Origin: an uncultured virus (IMG/VR IMGVR_UViG_3300017963_000022)
Lineage: Duplodnaviria; Heunggongvirae; Uroviricota; Caudoviricetes
Direction: 5' to 3' (one strand)
Virus record (IMG/VR): IMGVR_UViG_3300017963_000022
DNA length: 25,239 nucleotides
The notes below the pieces were generated by a model. It searched no databases and was not told where the DNA came from. It was given only the letters and a program-made list of their open reading frames with translations. Each line of letters starts with the position of its first letter. Position 1 is the first letter of the stretch. The translations under genes were made by a program, and so were the position numbers. This document shows positions 3,100-23,962 of this stretch, piece by piece.

Positions 3100-3171
3100 A
3101 TGGTTACAAAAATTTGAACAAGGCAATTCGCCCTTTAAGGGACAAACCACAATTAAATAAGGAGGTGCTTA

Positions 3172-4047
3172 TTGAGTGTATTACTATCACTTATTGAGCA
3201 AGACTATACTCTGACAGGTCATGGAAGATACCTTAAGACTCTTGAGCACGACTCCCTAGTTATAGATACAACAAGAGATTTATTCTTTTGGAACAGCCGA
3301 GAGATAAATGGAGATGCGTATGTATGGCTCGTAAAGATTAAAGGGATGTCGCCGATGGAAGCTCGAAGAAAGTTACGTGAGCTTAAGACTATTGACAACA
3401 GAGTATATGTATCAGTGGATACTCCGAGCGGAGAAGAAATAGTAGTATACCCCAAGCTAGTACAGGTCTTTTGGGAGAACGGCAAGAGACACAGAGATTA
3501 CTGGTATGCTAGAGGTATTAGCGACCAGACTGTAGACCGTTTCCAACTAGGCTATAGCGAAGGGTGGTATACAATTCCTTTCTTTATTGATAACTCTTTC
3601 GTGAATTTTCAAATGCGAAGAGACTCTCCAGAGAAACGAGTTAAGAGTTGGTATCGAGGACTCGGCCCGATGCTCTGGAACAGAGATCTCCTCAAAACTT
3701 CTTCGAGTGTTATCATTACGGAGAGTCCTACAGATGCAATTTTATTAAGGCAACACGGATACCCTGCCGTAAGTCATAACGCAGGAGCAGGATTTTGGAT
3801 TAGCTCCTGGAACAAATATTTTATAGATCAAAAAAATATATACATTATTTACGACAATGATGAAGCTGGAAGACTTGGTGCGTCTACCGTAGCCGAAGCT
3901 CTAGGTGTGTATAGGTGTAAGATTTATACCTTTGATGGGTATGAAGAAAAGTACGACTTAGGGATGTGGTTTCTTGACAATATAGGCTCCGAAAGAAAAC
4001 TTGGTGAGCTAATAACTACGGAGGCAAAGCACAACTTTGAAGCATAA
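3172..4047 (+). CDS. DnaG-like DNA primase (TOPRIM)
   Basis: RGIS...FQLGY and TOPRIM motifs ITESPTDA and YDNDEAG. TTG start with AAGGAGGT RBS. Confidence 0.9.
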   Translation: MSVLLSLIEQDYTLTGHGRYLKTLEHDSLVIDTTRDLFFWNSREINGDAYVWLVKIKGMSPMEARRKLRELKTIDNRVYVSVDTPSGEEIVVYPKLVQVFWENGKRHRDYWYARGISDQTVDRFQLGYSEGWYTIPFFIDNSFVNFQMRRDSPEKRVKSWYRGLGPMLWNRDLLKTSSSVIITESPTDAILLRQHGYPAVSHNAGAGFWISSWNKYFIDQKNIYIIYDNDEAGRLGASTVAEALGVYRCKIYTFDGYEEKYDLGMWFLDNIGSERKLGELITTEAKHNFEA

Positions 4048-4414
4048 AAATTATTGTGTAGTATGTGATGGAGGTAAAAGAAGTGGATTGACTTATGGGT
4101 CGTTTGTAGTCTATGATCTTTCTGGAAAACAGATTGCACACAGAGCTATGATTTTTGGATTTGGAACTTCTCTTGAAGCTGAGTTCATTGCTATGTTAAA
4201 TTCTTTAGAATACTGTTTAGATAAAGGATACACTAGAGTTATCTTTAAAACAGATTCAGCAGAGTTAATTAAACATGTTACCCTAAAATCTAACACGAGA
4301 AAATCCCAGTTAAGAACATTGGGGAACACTATAAGAAGAAAGTTAAAACGACTTGAGTATTATCAACTAATCAAAGTTCCTCGGAACGAGATCAAAAAGG
4401 TATTAGGACATTAG
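4037..4414 (+). CDS. Ribonuclease HI-like protein
   Basis: CDGG, TSLEAEFIAM and TDS carry three of the acidic RNase H residues; VPR near the C terminus. Confidence 0.8.
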   Translation: MKHKNYCVVCDGGKRSGLTYGSFVVYDLSGKQIAHRAMIFGFGTSLEAEFIAMLNSLEYCLDKGYTRVIFKTDSAELIKHVTLKSNTRKSQLRTLGNTIRRKLKRLEYYQLIKVPRNEIKKVLGH

Positions 4415-4416
4415 AA

Positions 4417-4977
4417 ATGGAGATATTAGGATTGGATTTGGATGGGGTGCTTTATGATTGGCGTAGAGCAGTTTGGCCTATACTTTTAGTAGATGCCAAA
4501 GAGACCAGAAGTTTTCACGACTTTTGGTTTGAAGAAGAAAGAGCAGAACGAAACGGAACGTCTAAACATAATAAACTCTTTTGGAAAAACTTAGTAGCAA
4601 GAGAAGATTTATATAATAGTTGCCCACCAGCAAAGGGGGTTGTTGAAACTCTGTGGAAACTGAGCAAGAAATATAATCTTATATACATTACTCACCGACC
4701 AAAATCTGTACGCTTTGTTACAGAATGGTGGCTCAAGAGTTACGATTTCCCTGAAAGGGATATGTTGGTCATGTCCTCTCTACCTAAACACCTACTAGTA
4801 CGCCAGTATAATTGTACCTACTATGTAGAAGACAGAGAAAAAATCCTCAATTCAGAGTTGAGGAATGTTTGTTCTCTTTTTGGAATGAGGACAGGAACAA
4901 ACTATACATTAGAAGGCGACCCAAGAATAACATTCATTGATGAGATTCCAGAGTTGCTGAATTATCTTGGAGGATAA
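4417..4977 (+). CDS. HAD-family 5'(3')-deoxyribonucleotidase-like protein
   Basis: N-terminal DLDGVL, YITHR, K and YVEDR HAD motifs. Confidence 0.85.
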   Translation: MEILGLDLDGVLYDWRRAVWPILLVDAKETRSFHDFWFEEERAERNGTSKHNKLFWKNLVAREDLYNSCPPAKGVVETLWKLSKKYNLIYITHRPKSVRFVTEWWLKSYDFPERDMLVMSSLPKHLLVRQYNCTYYVEDREKILNSELRNVCSLFGMRTGTNYTLEGDPRITFIDEIPELLNYLGG

Positions 4978-11150: not shown

Positions 11151-12089
11151 CTATTCCAAACCTAAAGTTTGGAGAATGTCTTGTGAGTCTGCACGATTAC
11201 ATGCGGTTACTGCTTGAATTGTGCGAGGTAAGTAGTAGTCTACAAGCTCTTTGGCTACAGCTAAATCCTTTACTGCTAGAGAAACTGCATATGTAGCGGC
11301 CTCTATAACACGCTCAACAGTCTCTAAAGTTCGCAACCAGGATGCAGATAAAGAGCGATATTCTAATCCCATGTCTCCATTAGGATAGAGTTTTGATCTG
11401 TACCTACCAGGATTACCAAAAACTTCTTTCCGAAGAACCTCAAGTTCAGGCTCATCTGAAACAGCTACCCCCATATTTCCAACAGTGATAGCGAGAAGTC
11501 GGATAATTGTTTTTTGGTGTTGGTGCATATAATCTCCAAAATCAGCACTAATGCTCAAATGAAGATGTCCACCTAAACCTCGGTACTCCCAACCATCTAG
11601 GGTAACTGTCTCGCAGTTATAGGCGGAGTCTATTGCATCTTTATCGGGGTTACAACCAGCAATGGACGCTTGATACAGGTCTCCGTTTTGATCGAGTTTG
11701 TCAGTAAACATTGAAGCATCAAACTTTGATACAGGAGCAAACCAAGGCTTGTATCCTTTGGGCCTGAGAAATTCTTCAAGAGCTTCCCGTGCTTTGTGGA
11801 ACTTCTTGAAGAGAGCTTCCGCAGTTACAGAAGGAGAAAAATCGGTTTCTACAAGAGCAGAGTCTTGATACCACGTACCATCCTCCATCTTCAAAAAGAT
11901 GTGGTGCGGTATTTTTTCTCCGTCCATTGACTCATCCCAACGTTCTTCAAGAACTGGAAGAACTCCTTGATGAAAGAGAAGTGCGGGTGGATAAAGAGTT
12001 TTGATTGGTTCTACATCTTCTACTTTCACAACGGCGGCCTCCACATCAGAGGCAAACTTCAATCCTGCTACTTTCTGTACATTATTCAT
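11151..12089 (-). CDS. phiEco32-like COOH-NH2 ligase type 2 (glutamine-synthetase/GCS fold)
   Basis: FASDVE (GxDxE-like), QDSALVE, GCNPD, RGLGGHLH, R...FG..G.YR.K.Y and GLEYRSLS motifs. Confidence 0.88.
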   Translation of the reverse strand: MNNVQKVAGLKFASDVEAAVVKVEDVEPIKTLYPPALLFHQGVLPVLEERWDESMDGEKIPHHIFLKMEDGTWYQDSALVETDFSPSVTAEALFKKFHKAREALEEFLRPKGYKPWFAPVSKFDASMFTDKLDQNGDLYQASIAGCNPDKDAIDSAYNCETVTLDGWEYRGLGGHLHLSISADFGDYMHQHQKTIIRLLAITVGNMGVAVSDEPELEVLRKEVFGNPGRYRSKLYPNGDMGLEYRSLSASWLRTLETVERVIEAATYAVSLAVKDLAVAKELVDYYLPRTIQAVTACNRADSQDILQTLGLE

Positions 12090-14308: not shown

Positions 14309-15103
14309 CTAACCTGGAGTAGTTAACATGTCCTCAAGAACTTCTTCTGCTAGTTGTCTTGCACTCCCATTATCTAAACCAAAGGCAGTATTGGGCTCAA
14401 AGAACACTGTACCAACTTTTGTTGACCATCCAACATCTAGAGCAAAGAATCGCCCTGGAAGTATTCTCGATGCCTTGAGCACATCTGCACACATTCTTGG
14501 ATATTTATTTTCAGGCTCAAATCTTCTAGAGTACCTGTATTTGTCGTTGTGTCTAATTTTGATTTTTCGAGAATCGTTTTCGCCTGACCTCAGAACTTTC
14601 TTAGATACTCTAAAAATTCTAGGTTCTGTACCATTATTTTGTTTGTACACAAAGAACCGATATTCAGTTCTTACTGGAATATAGGAGCACCAATAAGCAC
14701 CGTGTACCCAATGGTTACTAAAAATCTCTGCATTTATGCAGGGGTACATTCCCTTACCCTTGGAGCCTGTAAGTGTAGTGCGAACAATTAAAGGAAAGTT
14801 CCTCTCTTCTGGTGGTGTTGATACAAACTTTGGAGAATTAAGACCATTTGCTAATAAAAGCTCAGAAACTTTTAGCTTGTCTATTAGGAATTTTATATCC
14901 TTGGCAGAATTTCTGTTAGTCTCTCTTCTTTGTTCTGATTGTCGAAGTTCATAAGAGTTTCCGTAACGAAGAAAAATTCTTGTGTCTCTTATAACTACAT
15001 TGCTTACACGAGAAGTTACGGGTATTTGTTCTCCAGAAAGTTCTTCAATGTGTTTAGAAAGGAGTTTTGCAGAAGGTAATGTTAGTTTTGCAGATACTAT
15101 CAT
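14309..15103 (-). CDS. ATP-grasp ligase (RimK/YheCD-like)
   Basis: DKLK, FPLIVR, GSKGKG, EYRFFV, FFALDV and FFEPNTAFGL motifs. Confidence 0.8.
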   Translation of the reverse strand: MIVSAKLTLPSAKLLSKHIEELSGEQIPVTSRVSNVVIRDTRIFLRYGNSYELRQSEQRRETNRNSAKDIKFLIDKLKVSELLLANGLNSPKFVSTPPEERNFPLIVRTTLTGSKGKGMYPCINAEIFSNHWVHGAYWCSYIPVRTEYRFFVYKQNNGTEPRIFRVSKKVLRSGENDSRKIKIRHNDKYRYSRRFEPENKYPRMCADVLKASRILPGRFFALDVGWSTKVGTVFFEPNTAFGLDNGSARQLAEEVLEDMLTTPG

Positions 15104-18052: not shown

Positions 18053-18082
18053 TTTACGCTCCTTTCTTAAAGTCACAGGTAA

Positions 18083-18156
18083 AACCCTGGGTGAGACTCG
18101 AACTCACAACACTCGGCTTAGAAGGCCGATGCTCTATCCAATTGAGCTACCAGGGC
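18083..18156 (-). tRNA. tRNA-Arg (UCU), no encoded CCA
   Basis: GCCCTGG TA GCTC AATTGGATA GAGC A TCGGC CT-TCT-AA GCCGA GTGTT GTGAG TTCGAGT CTCAC CCAGGGT forms a full cloverleaf. Confidence 0.95.
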
Positions 18157-18178
18157 TATTAATTAAATAAGCTCCAAT

Positions 18179-21754: not shown

Positions 21755-21819
21755 TTTGGATTATAGGAACGTCTTAGAGAATATTATTGGGTTTGCATAT
21801 CTACCTCCTTTCATACAAT

Positions 21820-21937
21820 TAGGCATGGGGAGAATCGAACTCCCACTTTTCTCCAGAAAGGGAATACTCGGTAGCCCTTTTCACTACTACTCCCCCTTGC
21901 GAGACAGAAGAATGTACTACCACAATACGACATGCCT
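21820..21937 (-). ncRNA. tRNA-like RNA with a 54-nt insert in place of the anticodon loop
   Basis: AGGCATG TC GTAT TGTGGTA GTAC A TTCTT [54 nt] GAGAA AAGT GGGAG TTCGATT CTCCC CATGCCT A. Confidence 0.8.
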
Positions 21938-21964
21938 AACAAACTCTATTCTTCAGAGGAATAG

Positions 21965-23548
21965 TTATTCTTCTGTGATGAAGTTACTCATCACGTTTGG
22001 AGTAGCTGTATCAAAACCAACTACGTCCATCATCCCACGATCTCTTGGGTCTGCAATAGTAAAACCATTGGAGACCATACCCACAACAATGAGTTTGGCA
22101 GGGATGCCAGTTTTCTGACGGTAATTGTCAAGAGCTTGCTTCGGATGTACCGTTCTTCCAGCCCATGTTTCGGAGTCGGTGTAAACAATGAAAGCATCCA
22201 CAGGAATGTTTCTCTCCGTAGCATATGTCATTGGAAGAGCACAATCAGTACCACCCATCGGGATTGCAGAGACTTTGCGGATAATATCGTCAAGTCTCTG
22301 ATTTGGCGAAAGTGAAACAGGAACGAGATCATGAGAGAAAGCCATGATTGACCATTTTGGTTCCACTCTCGCAGTAACCATAGCCATTGCCGCAGAGCCT
22401 ACACGAGGAGTAATTCCCGTCATTCCTGCAATAGTCTCCCATTCCATTGAGGCTGATACATCCAGAGCCAGCATTGTTCTCTTTTCTGTGGGTTGCACGT
22501 TGCCAAAAGAGGTATAGAAAGCTGTATTGAGTGCATCAACAAGCTGAGAGACTGGATTCCAGGTCAAACTACCTCTTACTCCTTGTCCATTCTCATATGC
22601 TTTGAGTGCTACAAGCACACCCAATGGGTGAATACGAGCATACTTCAATAACTCATCGTTAGTGACACGCTCGATTACTGTGGAGAGGGCATCGGACATT
22701 GGAGCAATCAATCCAAGATTGGTCATCTTTCCGAGATTGCGAATCATTGCACCCAGGGGCATATTCTCCAACAGTGCTTCCCAAACTTCGGCATGATTGA
22801 GGAATTGTGTTGGGAGCATCTCACGAGTTAGATTGTGTTTTTGGATGAGTTTAACAATTTCGGCAACAGAGGTTGATGCTTTTGCTTGTTCATACGCACT
22901 CAGCAATGGGTGTTGTGGCTCTGTATTCTTGCCGACAATCCAACCAAAGATGTCGTTTTGCTCTGAAGTATCTGGTACAGGTTTGATGAGACGCAGGATG
23001 TCTGCATGAGACCAGCCATCACGTTGCTGATATTTCACAACTTGATGAGCGAGACTATCAGTTTTCCTGTTCTTATACCAAGAGGTTAGTCCCTCTTTAT
23101 AGAGTTTCCCCCGACCCCTGAACTGCTTACAGTACTCAACAAAATGGAACAAGTGAGTACCAATGCGAGCAACTTTTGGAAGCACTGAGAAAGCCAACTT
23201 GCGGGTTTCTTCATCTCCCAATCCTGCACACATCGCCAGGATAAACAGAGCAGGGTCATTCTTTGGAGCTCGTCCAGTTGTCGAGATTTCAACAACTCGG
23301 TTAACCACTCGAACACCATCTTCTTTAATGCACTCTAGAACGTTGAGGGCGTTGTCTTTGGTCAGTTTTTGCTCCTTGACATAATAAGTTCCCCCCTCAC
23401 TTCCGAGAATGAGAAAACGGTCAAGCATATGCCATGCCTCTGCCGCCCACCCAAAACCTCCAGCGTTATTCTGTACTTGGTCATCTCGACCAGGAATACG
23501 CTCATCTTGGGGTGTTTCTCGTGTACTAAATTTTTGGTACGTTTTCAT
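21965..23548 (-). CDS. rsr: Ro60/Rsr TROVE-vWA RNA-binding protein, 527 aa
   Basis: NNAGGF, LDRFLILGSEGGTYY, KYQQRDGWSH.D.LRL, MIDAS DVSAS, GGTDCALPM, VYTDSET and VVGFD motifs. Start moved to MKTYQ (AGGAG RBS). Confidence 0.96.
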   Translation of the reverse strand: MKTYQKFSTRETPQDERIPGRDDQVQNNAGGFGWAAEAWHMLDRFLILGSEGGTYYVKEQKLTKDNALNVLECIKEDGVRVVNRVVEISTTGRAPKNDPALFILAMCAGLGDEETRKLAFSVLPKVARIGTHLFHFVEYCKQFRGRGKLYKEGLTSWYKNRKTDSLAHQVVKYQQRDGWSHADILRLIKPVPDTSEQNDIFGWIVGKNTEPQHPLLSAYEQAKASTSVAEIVKLIQKHNLTREMLPTQFLNHAEVWEALLENMPLGAMIRNLGKMTNLGLIAPMSDALSTVIERVTNDELLKYARIHPLGVLVALKAYENGQGVRGSLTWNPVSQLVDALNTAFYTSFGNVQPTEKRTMLALDVSASMEWETIAGMTGITPRVGSAAMAMVTARVEPKWSIMAFSHDLVPVSLSPNQRLDDIIRKVSAIPMGGTDCALPMTYATERNIPVDAFIVYTDSETWAGRTVHPKQALDNYRQKTGIPAKLIVVGMVSNGFTIADPRDRGMMDVVGFDTATPNVMSNFITEE

Positions 23549-23576
23549 CAGCTTATCTCCTATAAGCAATAGTGAA
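23544..23576 (-). promoter_or_regulatory. Y-RNA-mimic hairpin over the rsr RBS and start codon (putative autoregulatory operator)
   Basis: UUC ACU AUU GCUUAU [AGGAG] AUAAGC U GAU GAA: a 6-bp stem around the SD, a bulged U, then G-U, A-U and U-A pairs using the AUG. Confidence 0.6.
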
Positions 23577-23580
23577 TAAA

Positions 23581-23645
23581 AAGAGAGCAAGTTGGTGATA
23601 GTGGGAGACATCTTAGCAGGATAACCCACTATCTTCAGCTCTCTT
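23581..23645 (-). ncRNA. Y RNA-like element A (65 nt)
   Basis: AAGAGAGC TGAAG ATAGTGGG TTATC ... CCCACTAT CACCAA CTT GCTCTCTT. Confidence 0.85.
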
Positions 23646-23659
23646 ATAAACTCAAAAGA

Positions 23660-23753
23660 AAGGAGAACAAGTTGTGAACTTGGGAGTTTAGGGCTCCTTT
23701 CGGAGTTCCCGCTGGTATAGGTTAGCGATAACCCAAATTCTTCAGTTCTCCTT
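23660..23753 (-). ncRNA. Y RNA-like element B (94 nt)
   Basis: AAGGAGAAC TGAA GAATTTGGG TTATC ... CTCC-GAAA-GGAG ... CCCAAGTTC ACAA CTT GTTCTCCTT. Confidence 0.85.
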
Positions 23754-23755
23754 AT

Positions 23756-23881
23756 TGAGCATGGTGAGATTTGAACTCACGACCTCCTGTTTTGAATGAT
23801 AACCCTCATACTTCAGCCTAACGGCAAGTGAGTGTAAAAGGGAAATGTATACAGGTGCTCTACCAACTGAGCTACATGCTC
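23756..23881 (-). ncRNA. tRNA-Y RNA chimera C: intact tRNA body with a permuted Y module in the anticodon loop
   Basis: GAGCATG TA GCTC AGTTGGTA GAGC A CCTGT [60 nt incl. CCCTTTTAC..CTT GCC GTTA GGC TGAA GTATGAGGG TTATC] ACAGG AGGTC GTGAG TTCAAAT CTCAC CATGCTC A. Confidence 0.85.
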
Positions 23882-23887
23882 ACAAAG

Positions 23888-23962
23888 TCTTGGGGCAAGG
23901 GGGGAGTCAGGGAGAAAAGCTTCTTCAACAAGGAGATAACCCTAAACTCATCAGCCCCAAGA
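23888..23962 (-). ncRNA. Y RNA-like element D (75 nt)
   Basis: TCTTGGGGC TGAT GAGTTTAGGG TTATC ... CCCTGACTC CCCC CTT GCCCCAAGA. Confidence 0.85.

Follow-up and report, generated by a model that had tools for sequence, protein, structure and literature searches.

The window analysed here, a 25,239-nucleotide stretch of DNA from an uncultured virus of the Caudoviricetes (IMG/VR record IMGVR_UViG_3300017963_000022), carries the gene rsr for an orthologue of Ro60 (Rsr) and, upstream of it on the same strand, four Y RNA modules in which the single bulged base is U rather than C. Comparison of sequences suggests that the locus probably specifies a variant of the Ro60-Y RNA particle whose RNA and protein have changed in concert, with three basic substitutions in the protein (Glu to Lys141, Trp to Arg146 and His to Lys189), lying in two segments, that would shift its reading from C to U. 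Several separate Rsr lineages, from phages, bacteria and an archaeon, show this pairing of RNA and protein. When the protein motif is read directly among 176 non-redundant Rsr, Arg or Lys replaces a conserved Trp in 14 of the 14 lineages with bulged-U RNAs (U-type) and in none of the 105 with bulged-C RNAs (C-type). From bacteria to humans, the bulged cytidine is treated as an unvarying hallmark of recognition by Ro60; a recurrent natural U-for-C exchange with matched protein changes departs from this, and the variant names the residues likeliest to read the bulged base. A literature search that did not extend to the predicted Y RNAs listed in the Chen et al. 2014 supplements, which may hold variant motifs, returned no description of U-bulge Y RNAs or of Trp/His co-variation in Ro60; nor did searches of the literature on Y RNAs bring up the Trp position.

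Y RNA modules with a bulged uridine

Taken alone, the hexamer CTGAWG is uninformative, with 31 matches in the window against 32 expected; the composite CTGAWG-N3-9-GGGTTATC has four matches where 0.01 are expected, always on the minus strand and within positions 23620-23954. CUGA(A/U)G is followed 5-6 bases downstream by GGGUUAUC in all four modules, which lie 34-412 nt upstream of the rsr start on the same (minus) strand and place their bulged U at 23637, 23744, 23815 and 23953. Each is laid out as a lower stem ending in C, a single U, and then GA pairing with UU of the opposite strand. All four read G-N-U-G-A-(A/U)-G, and the bacterial motif GNCGAAN0-1G is found in none of them. The bacterial consensus and its vertebrate equivalent GGUCCGA are those of Chen et al. 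2014 (PMC4201824), in agreement with the forms that the earlier note gave for known Y RNAs. Apart from U replacing the bulged C, the modules have the architecture of the GGUCCGA helix of vertebrates and of the GNCGAA motif of bacteria.

Y modules were called in two ways: by a Python routine blind to the bulged base, anchored on GUUAYC at a fixed distance and requiring pairing of the 3' strand, and by a covariance model, R1, built from 19 U-type and 33 C-type hairpins. RNAalifold on a MAFFT alignment recovered the lower stem only, and the R1 structure was supplied by hand. Across the 52 aligned modules all 7 lower-stem pairs show compensatory changes, and co-variation is also seen in the two pairs above the bulge, which take the forms GA/UU, GG/UC and GG/CC. 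The block GGUUAUC, just above the upper stem, is near-invariant in 52 phage and bacterial Y modules, and stands in the window at 23620-23627, 23727-23734, 23798-23805 and 23935-23942 (minus strand).

Three of the modules are ordinary hairpin Y RNAs. Y RNA a (23582..23644, minus strand; bulged U 23637) is a short hairpin that scores 52.6 bits with R1 (E 4.6e-9), its twin L105:45-107 being in the R1 seed; Y RNA b (23662..23751, minus strand; bulged U 23744), which is outside the seed, scores 32.7 bits (E 1.8e-4); and Y RNA d (23890..23960, minus strand; bulged U 23953), which reads CUGAUG and carries the composite motif, scores 41.5 bits (E 1.6e-6) and is itself a seed member. The module at 23815 is embedded in a tRNA-shaped RNA, described below. 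The earlier note had counted five such motifs, and four of them stand as genuine Y modules. The fifth, CUGAAG at 21951-21956, sits in the loop of a small hairpin predicted by folding past the rsr stop codon (21940..21962, minus strand), lacks GGGUUAUC and has no R1 match, and was rejected.

At gathering score, Rfam returned only tRNA matches on the window, and no match to Y_RNA or YrlA (RF02553) appeared even at E up to 10. With the nematode stem-bulge RNA (sbRNA) model (RF01656), Y RNA a scores 35.4 bits and Y RNA b 28 bits, both under the gathering score of 38.

The Rsr protein and its Y RNA face

The rsr gene (21965..23548, minus strand) encodes a protein of 527 residues, P0001, with the Pfam domains TROVE (PF05731, E 2.4e-41) and then vWA_Ro60 (PF25045, E 2.3e-67). 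HMMER matches to solved Ro60 chains from Xenopus (1yvp, E 1e-129), human (9nen, 5e-129) and Deinococcus (2nvo, 3e-123) span residues 11-524, nearly the entire length, and the vWA domain holds the sequence LALDVSASM, with the DxSxS motif described as MIDAS-type (PMC11277228). Mechanical prediction opens the reading frame at a GTG at 23629 (21965-23629, minus strand), which would run into Y RNA a. We take the ATG at 23548 as the likelier start, since translation from the GTG would traverse that RNA, and since a GGAG lies just before the ATG, which also agrees with the N-termini of homologues.

It is at the Y RNA face that P0001 departs from the family, with Lys189 (codon 22982..22984, minus strand, at the low end of the interval flagged in the earlier note) at the position of His187 in Xenopus, and Arg146 (codon 23111..23113, minus strand) at the Trp of the conserved G-W-G motif. 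That Trp lies within FRGWGR in most bacterial and phage proteins and within GGWGR in Deinococcus; in Xenopus it is W144, in the sequence MWGR. A third basic residue, Lys141 (codon 23126..23128, minus strand), occupies a position that is mostly Glu or Asp in C-type proteins, and Asp in Deinococcus. Lys189 and Arg146 define a variant; membership of the Ro60/Rsr family stands.

Residues 172-190 of P0001 read KYQQRDGWSHADILRLIKP. The HMMER alignment with Xenopus Ro60 is gapped at this site (RL--IKP), and those with human Ro60 and Deinococcus Rsr are ungapped. We place Lys189 opposite His187 because of these two ungapped alignments and the family pattern L-x-H-P versus L-x-K-P, which upholds the assignment made in the earlier note. 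In a protein-only sample of homologues, chosen by similarity to P0001 and blind to the residue at the 187 position, the motif was located in 111 of 120 close homologues, with His in 97, Lys in 12 (P0001 included), Ser in one and Phe in one. Two reviews bear out the importance that the earlier note gave to His187: PMC4030889 calls it essential for Y RNA contact, PMC11277228 likewise describes it as required, and according to both the H187S exchange abolishes Y RNA binding.

The nearest named homologues of P0001 (58-60% identity) come from Heimdallarchaeaceae and Promethearchaeota (Asgard archaeal) metagenome-assembled genomes (MAGs). Of the Asgard-annotated homologues, P0003 is His-type, and P0018 is His-type with the Trp kept.

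Co-variation of the bulged base with the protein

About 300 rsr loci were surveyed in three samples: 64 viral loci chosen by similarity to P0001; Lys-type loci, found with a back-translated pattern demanding Lys at the His187 position, in 16 viral, at least 80 metagenomic and 25 cellular-genome sources; and His-type loci, found with the same pattern carrying His, in 120 viral loci, 80 of them with flanks. The U-type motif amounts to 14 specified bases, and thousands of chance matches to it are estimated in public collections. The R1 census covered 97 Lys-type and 100 His-type sources (the His-type loci L213-L240 were called by the Python routine only) and gave 93 loci with matches: 40 His/C, 28 Lys/C, 16 Lys/U, two Lys/A, one His/U and six C-type loci in which the rsr motif was unparsed. 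De-replication at 97% identity left the 176 non-redundant full-length Rsr, which divide into 72 His/C, 33 Lys/C, 14 Lys/U, 55 with no RNA call and two His/U. These last two, L010 and L206, we judge spurious, as their stems (CCGACU and AGUACU) do not resemble those of Y RNAs and R1 finds no U module in either.

When every alignment column was scanned for association with the bulged U, positions 146, 141 and 189 of P0001 ranked above the rest. Arg at position 146 is present in 11/14 U-type and 0/105 C-type lineages, Lys at 141 in 13/14 and 12/105, and Lys at 189 in 14/14 and 33/105, the last in a sample enriched for Lys. The Trp itself is kept in 93 of the 105 C-type lineages and in none of the 14 U-type, and the association of this position with U or C has a Fisher p of 2e-18, ignoring phylogeny. 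An apparent C-type locus with Arg or Lys at the Trp position, L116, proved to be a regular-expression artefact, its aligned sequence being FGGYTH. No protein combines Arg or Lys at the Trp position with His at 189, among either the His representatives (0/108) or the His proteins of the protein-only sample (0/97). The RNAs are equally uniform within loci: U modules make up 4/4 of those in the window and 5/5 in each of L084, L140 and L287, L154 has 4-5 U modules, and no U-type locus contains a C module. Modules of one locus differ in their stems and all keep the U.

Cellular genomes repeat the pattern. U-type loci occur in genomes or MAGs of Desulfonema magnum (FRGRGR, five U modules), Thiotrichaceae (FRGRGR, two U modules), Parabeggiatoa, Thiomargarita and a Thermoplasmatota archaeon (without the Trp, three U modules), and all 16 Trp-type cellular-genome loci with modules are C-type. 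The cellular U-type loci are L287/L306 (the complete Desulfonema magnum chromosome), L301, L281, L288, L290, L295 and L285; a prophage location is possible for them.

The earlier note had proposed that a single change of His187 to Lys compensates the change of C to U, and that its purpose is to make the phage pair orthogonal to the Ro/Y pair of the host. Lys is indeed found in every U-type lineage, the window is phage-like, and four of the 16 Lys-type viral loci (L067, L068, L070 and L073) are U-type. Against this, Lys accompanies C-bulge RNAs in 32-33 non-redundant lineages and in 16 of the 25 Lys-type cellular-genome loci, Lys/C loci being found in Acidimicrobiia, Microthrixaceae, Caldilineaceae and other Chloroflexota genomes, so that Lys at the 187 position is necessary and not sufficient for U; the Trp position discriminates better. 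Moreover, each of the five U-type cellular genomes or MAGs searched, Desulfonema magnum included, has a single rsr, and therefore no co-resident C-type pair from which to be insulated. We consider this explanation improbable. Tabulating residue 187 against the bulged base, as the earlier note had suggested, thus confirms a link and does away with a two-state code. Of its compensatory specificity switch the co-variation is real, the tightest partner of the U being the change of the G-W-G Trp to Arg or Lys, which it had not seen, and orthogonality to a host pair is unsupported as a general reason.

A different possibility is that the basic triad is an adaptation to some other RNA feature or to a partner (the pair adjacent to the bulge, the embedding in a tRNA, or an effector protein), with the U incidental. 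C is the partner of the G beside the bulge in 54/67 Lys/C modules versus 58/160 His/C modules, giving a G-C rather than a G-U pair; these are raw counts, uncorrected for phylogeny. The 187 position would thus also track the neighbouring pair, the G-C pair being commoner in Lys/C than in His/C modules. The U-type modules themselves, however, mostly keep the ordinary GA/UU arrangement (21/26), the tRNA-embedded topology occurs in a C-type locus (L042) as well as in U-type loci, and of the RNA features seen, the bulged U alone is confined to proteins with Arg or Lys for Trp, all of which makes such an adaptation very unlikely. The G-C pair near the bulge in Lys/C modules fits a role of position 189 near the bulge. 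The Lys/C loci L071-L081, L091, L096, L100 and L139-L151 often have the motif CCGG(A/C)G, with CUCG on the 3' strand.

Repeated origin of the U-type combination

A maximum-likelihood tree was calculated from 92 proteins after masking of the four trait columns (LG+C20 PMSF, quick search); rows L212, L132 and L116 were omitted as mis-parsed, and of the 72 His/C representatives 42 were drawn randomly and 41 kept. It requires the U/C trait to change 7 times and the His/Lys state 14 times. U-type L070 is nested inside a strongly supported (starred; 98, 97) His/C clade, and the window lineage, represented by L105 (less than 3% distant), groups with His/C and Lys/C proteins with 92% SH-aLRT support. 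Forcing the 12 U-type representatives into a single clade changes the log-likelihood by -151.6, with a p of 5.9e-6 in the approximately unbiased (AU) test on a chosen 42-row subset of these 12 and 30 C-type neighbours. The U-type proteins are therefore not one clade, and the combination arose repeatedly. Nor does a shared transferred cassette seem likely, because over residues 122-200 without the trait columns the identity between U-type proteins (0.547) is about the same as that between U-type and C-type proteins (0.545).

These results bear on a further alternative, that there is no functional link at all, the substitutions and the U having been co-inherited in one lineage or having drifted neutrally, with the base unread by the protein. 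Rejection of a single U-type clade, the lack of shared U ancestry in the flanking segment and the retention of U by modules of one locus that differ in their stems speak against it. An unread base would also be hard to reconcile with the bulged C being the primary Ro60 binding determinant in animals (PMC4030889), or with the finding that in a C-type Ro60 of a Thermus phage the change of C to U in the CGAA motif raises the dissociation constant from 16.6 to 49 nM, about threefold (PMC12135203).

Several observations do weigh against a co-adapted U-reader, and some of them favour an absence of any link. The strongly supported branches hold only 2 independent U/C contrasts, too few to give a sign test power, and that test is not significant; the count of 7 changes rests on the best tree, in which many nodes, the deep ones among them, are weak. 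Sampling was by residue, through separate Lys and His patterns, with the His-type loci drawn from viral contigs only. For six lineages whose Trp is replaced by Arg or Lys there is no RNA call, in most cases because the flanks are short. In L190, whose protein has both His and Trp, a U-bulge module (CUGGAC, 4202-4268, minus strand) lies beside a C module, which suggests that a C-type protein may tolerate U; this protein is among the nearest relatives of U-type L070 (59% identity). L076 and L118, with Lys and Trp, each have one A-bulge module beside C modules. All three may be evolutionary intermediates. Finally, we infer from sequence that W144, H187 and the acidic position contact the bulged base. 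On balance, we regard the absence of a functional link as quite improbable, and co-adaptation of the bulged U with the basic triad remains the reading we prefer.

A putative switch from C-reader to U-reader

Such co-adaptation would be readily explained if the residues of the triad lie at or beside the pocket that reads the bulged base, a placement in keeping with the Thermus phage Ro60, which binds its Y-like RNA beside helices α8 and α10 (PMC12135203). C offers an amino-group donor, which would suit the acceptor or stacking residues Glu, His and Trp, and U a carbonyl acceptor, which would suit the donors Lys and Arg, so that the Lys/Arg/Lys triad would turn a C-reader into a U-reader. Lys at the 187 position appears permissive, because it is found with both C and U, and Lys189 may have been a permissive first step, with the change of Trp to Arg or Lys, tied exclusively to U, as the committing step.

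More speculatively, Ro60 proteins might fall into at least two natural, mutually discriminating classes, C-readers with Glu/Trp/His and U-readers with Lys/Arg/Lys, the latter having evolved repeatedly together with their Y RNAs; we put this forward tentatively, and on balance think it somewhat unlikely. If it were true, there would be a small recognition code for the bulged nucleotide, and a U-type phage would have a private Ro ribonucleoprotein that C-type Y RNAs of the host could not titrate and the host Rsr could not hijack. The variant would offer ready-made orthogonal RNA-protein pairs for tethering experiments, and motif searches with GNCGAA would miss the whole U-type class, to which Y RNAs of Desulfonema, of giant sulfur bacteria and of certain large phages belong.

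Relation to characterised Ro-Y systems

The system of the window is built like the vertebrate one (Xenopus laevis, 1YVP/1YVR; human RO60, 9NEN), with TROVE and vWA domains in the protein, of which residues 12-524 match Xenopus Ro60, and with the same RNA design of a lower stem, a single bulged pyrimidine and GA paired with UU. It differs in the bulge, C there and U in the window, in the residues at Trp144, His187 and the neighbouring position, which are Arg, Lys and Lys in P0001, and in a 6-residue insert before the Trp in the vertebrate protein that is absent from P0001.

Also related are the Rsr-YrlA/YrlB loci of bacteria and phages (Salmonella, Mycobacterium smegmatis and mycobacteriophages; PMC4201824), where several Y RNAs likewise stand in a row on the same strand within a few hundred bases of rsr, and where each locus has one or more RNAs with a tRNA-like domain; the four modules of the window fall within the 4 kb of rsr, on its strand, in which Y RNAs of this class are encoded. 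The motif is GNUGA(A/U)G in the window as opposed to GNCGAAN0-1G, and whereas YrlA has a circularly permuted tRNA, the tRNA-shaped RNA of the window is unpermuted and has a loop closing its Ro-binding stem. Among phages, 361 records carry annotated Ro-like proteins. The Thermus phage phiLo also encodes a Ro60 with Y-like RNAs (Yrl1 and Yrl2) just upstream, which basic residues bind beside α8 and α10 (PMC12135203); it differs in having the CGAA motif, in which U is the weaker ligand, and its Ro60 is too divergent to have surfaced in the P0001 sequence search of solved structures.

Nematode sbRNAs (RF01656) have in common with the window RNAs the blocks UGGGUUAUC and CAACUUG. A related U-type RNA, from L106, reaches 43.7 bits with the sbRNA model, above the gathering score, and the window RNAs fall below it. 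The nematode RNAs differ in being eukaryotic and in that most are unbound by the worm Ro60 orthologue (PMC4726728). The conservation of GGUUAUC, together with sbRNA scores of 28-44 bits, suggests a deeper homology between prokaryotic and animal Y RNAs than PMC4726728 allows.

tRNA-shaped RNAs and the rest of the window

The remaining Y module of the window (bulged U 23815) belongs to a tRNA-shaped RNA at 23756..23881 (minus strand) in which the module replaces the anticodon loop. The Rfam tRNA model matches it over model positions 1-71 with 59.8 bits and a 60-nt insert, ARAGORN makes no tRNA call there, and the minimum free energy fold is a cloverleaf with an inserted hairpin (z = -2.98). Within the insert the 3' strand of the Y stem comes first, followed by GGC-U-GAAG...GGGUUAUC, with GUUA as the closing loop, so the tRNA ends are open and the Y stem stands at the anticodon position. 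Such an open-ended tRNA with a Y module is the predicted unpermuted counterpart of the circularly permuted YrlA, and its tRNA ends may be processing sites for RNase P and RNase Z inside the Y RNA array.

Long Rfam tRNA matches (113-154 nt) number 14 in 11 of 20 rsr loci, and 10 of the 14 hold the strict Y motif. Embedded modules of this kind are seen at L306:3966-4095, L083:2389-2519 and 2592-2722, L103:3031-3158 and 3165-3293, L307:1199-1327, L106:2803-2915, L154:1705-1831, L070:5081-5234 and L042:3507-3629, with both U-type loci and a C-type locus (L042) represented.

Directly downstream of rsr, folding predicts a second tRNA-like RNA (21811..21942, minus strand), which has no Y motif. It has a 10-bp acceptor-like stem, a canonical T arm GGGAGUUCGAUUCUCCC and a long extended arm (z = -2.15; 3/200 shuffles fold as well), and neither Rfam nor ARAGORN calls it. 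It may belong to the Ro-Y system.

The rest of the window resembles a large phage, with DNA polymerase, primase, ribonucleotide reductase, clamp loader and peptide deformylase among its PHROGs matches. It also contains a polynucleotide-kinase-like gene (4417-4977, plus strand), a COOH-NH2 ligase-like gene (11151-12089, minus strand), a RimK-like (S6 glutaminyl transferase) gene (14309-15103, minus strand) and a tRNA-Arg(TCT) (18082-18157, minus strand), which together hint at a possible RNA-repair theme around rsr.

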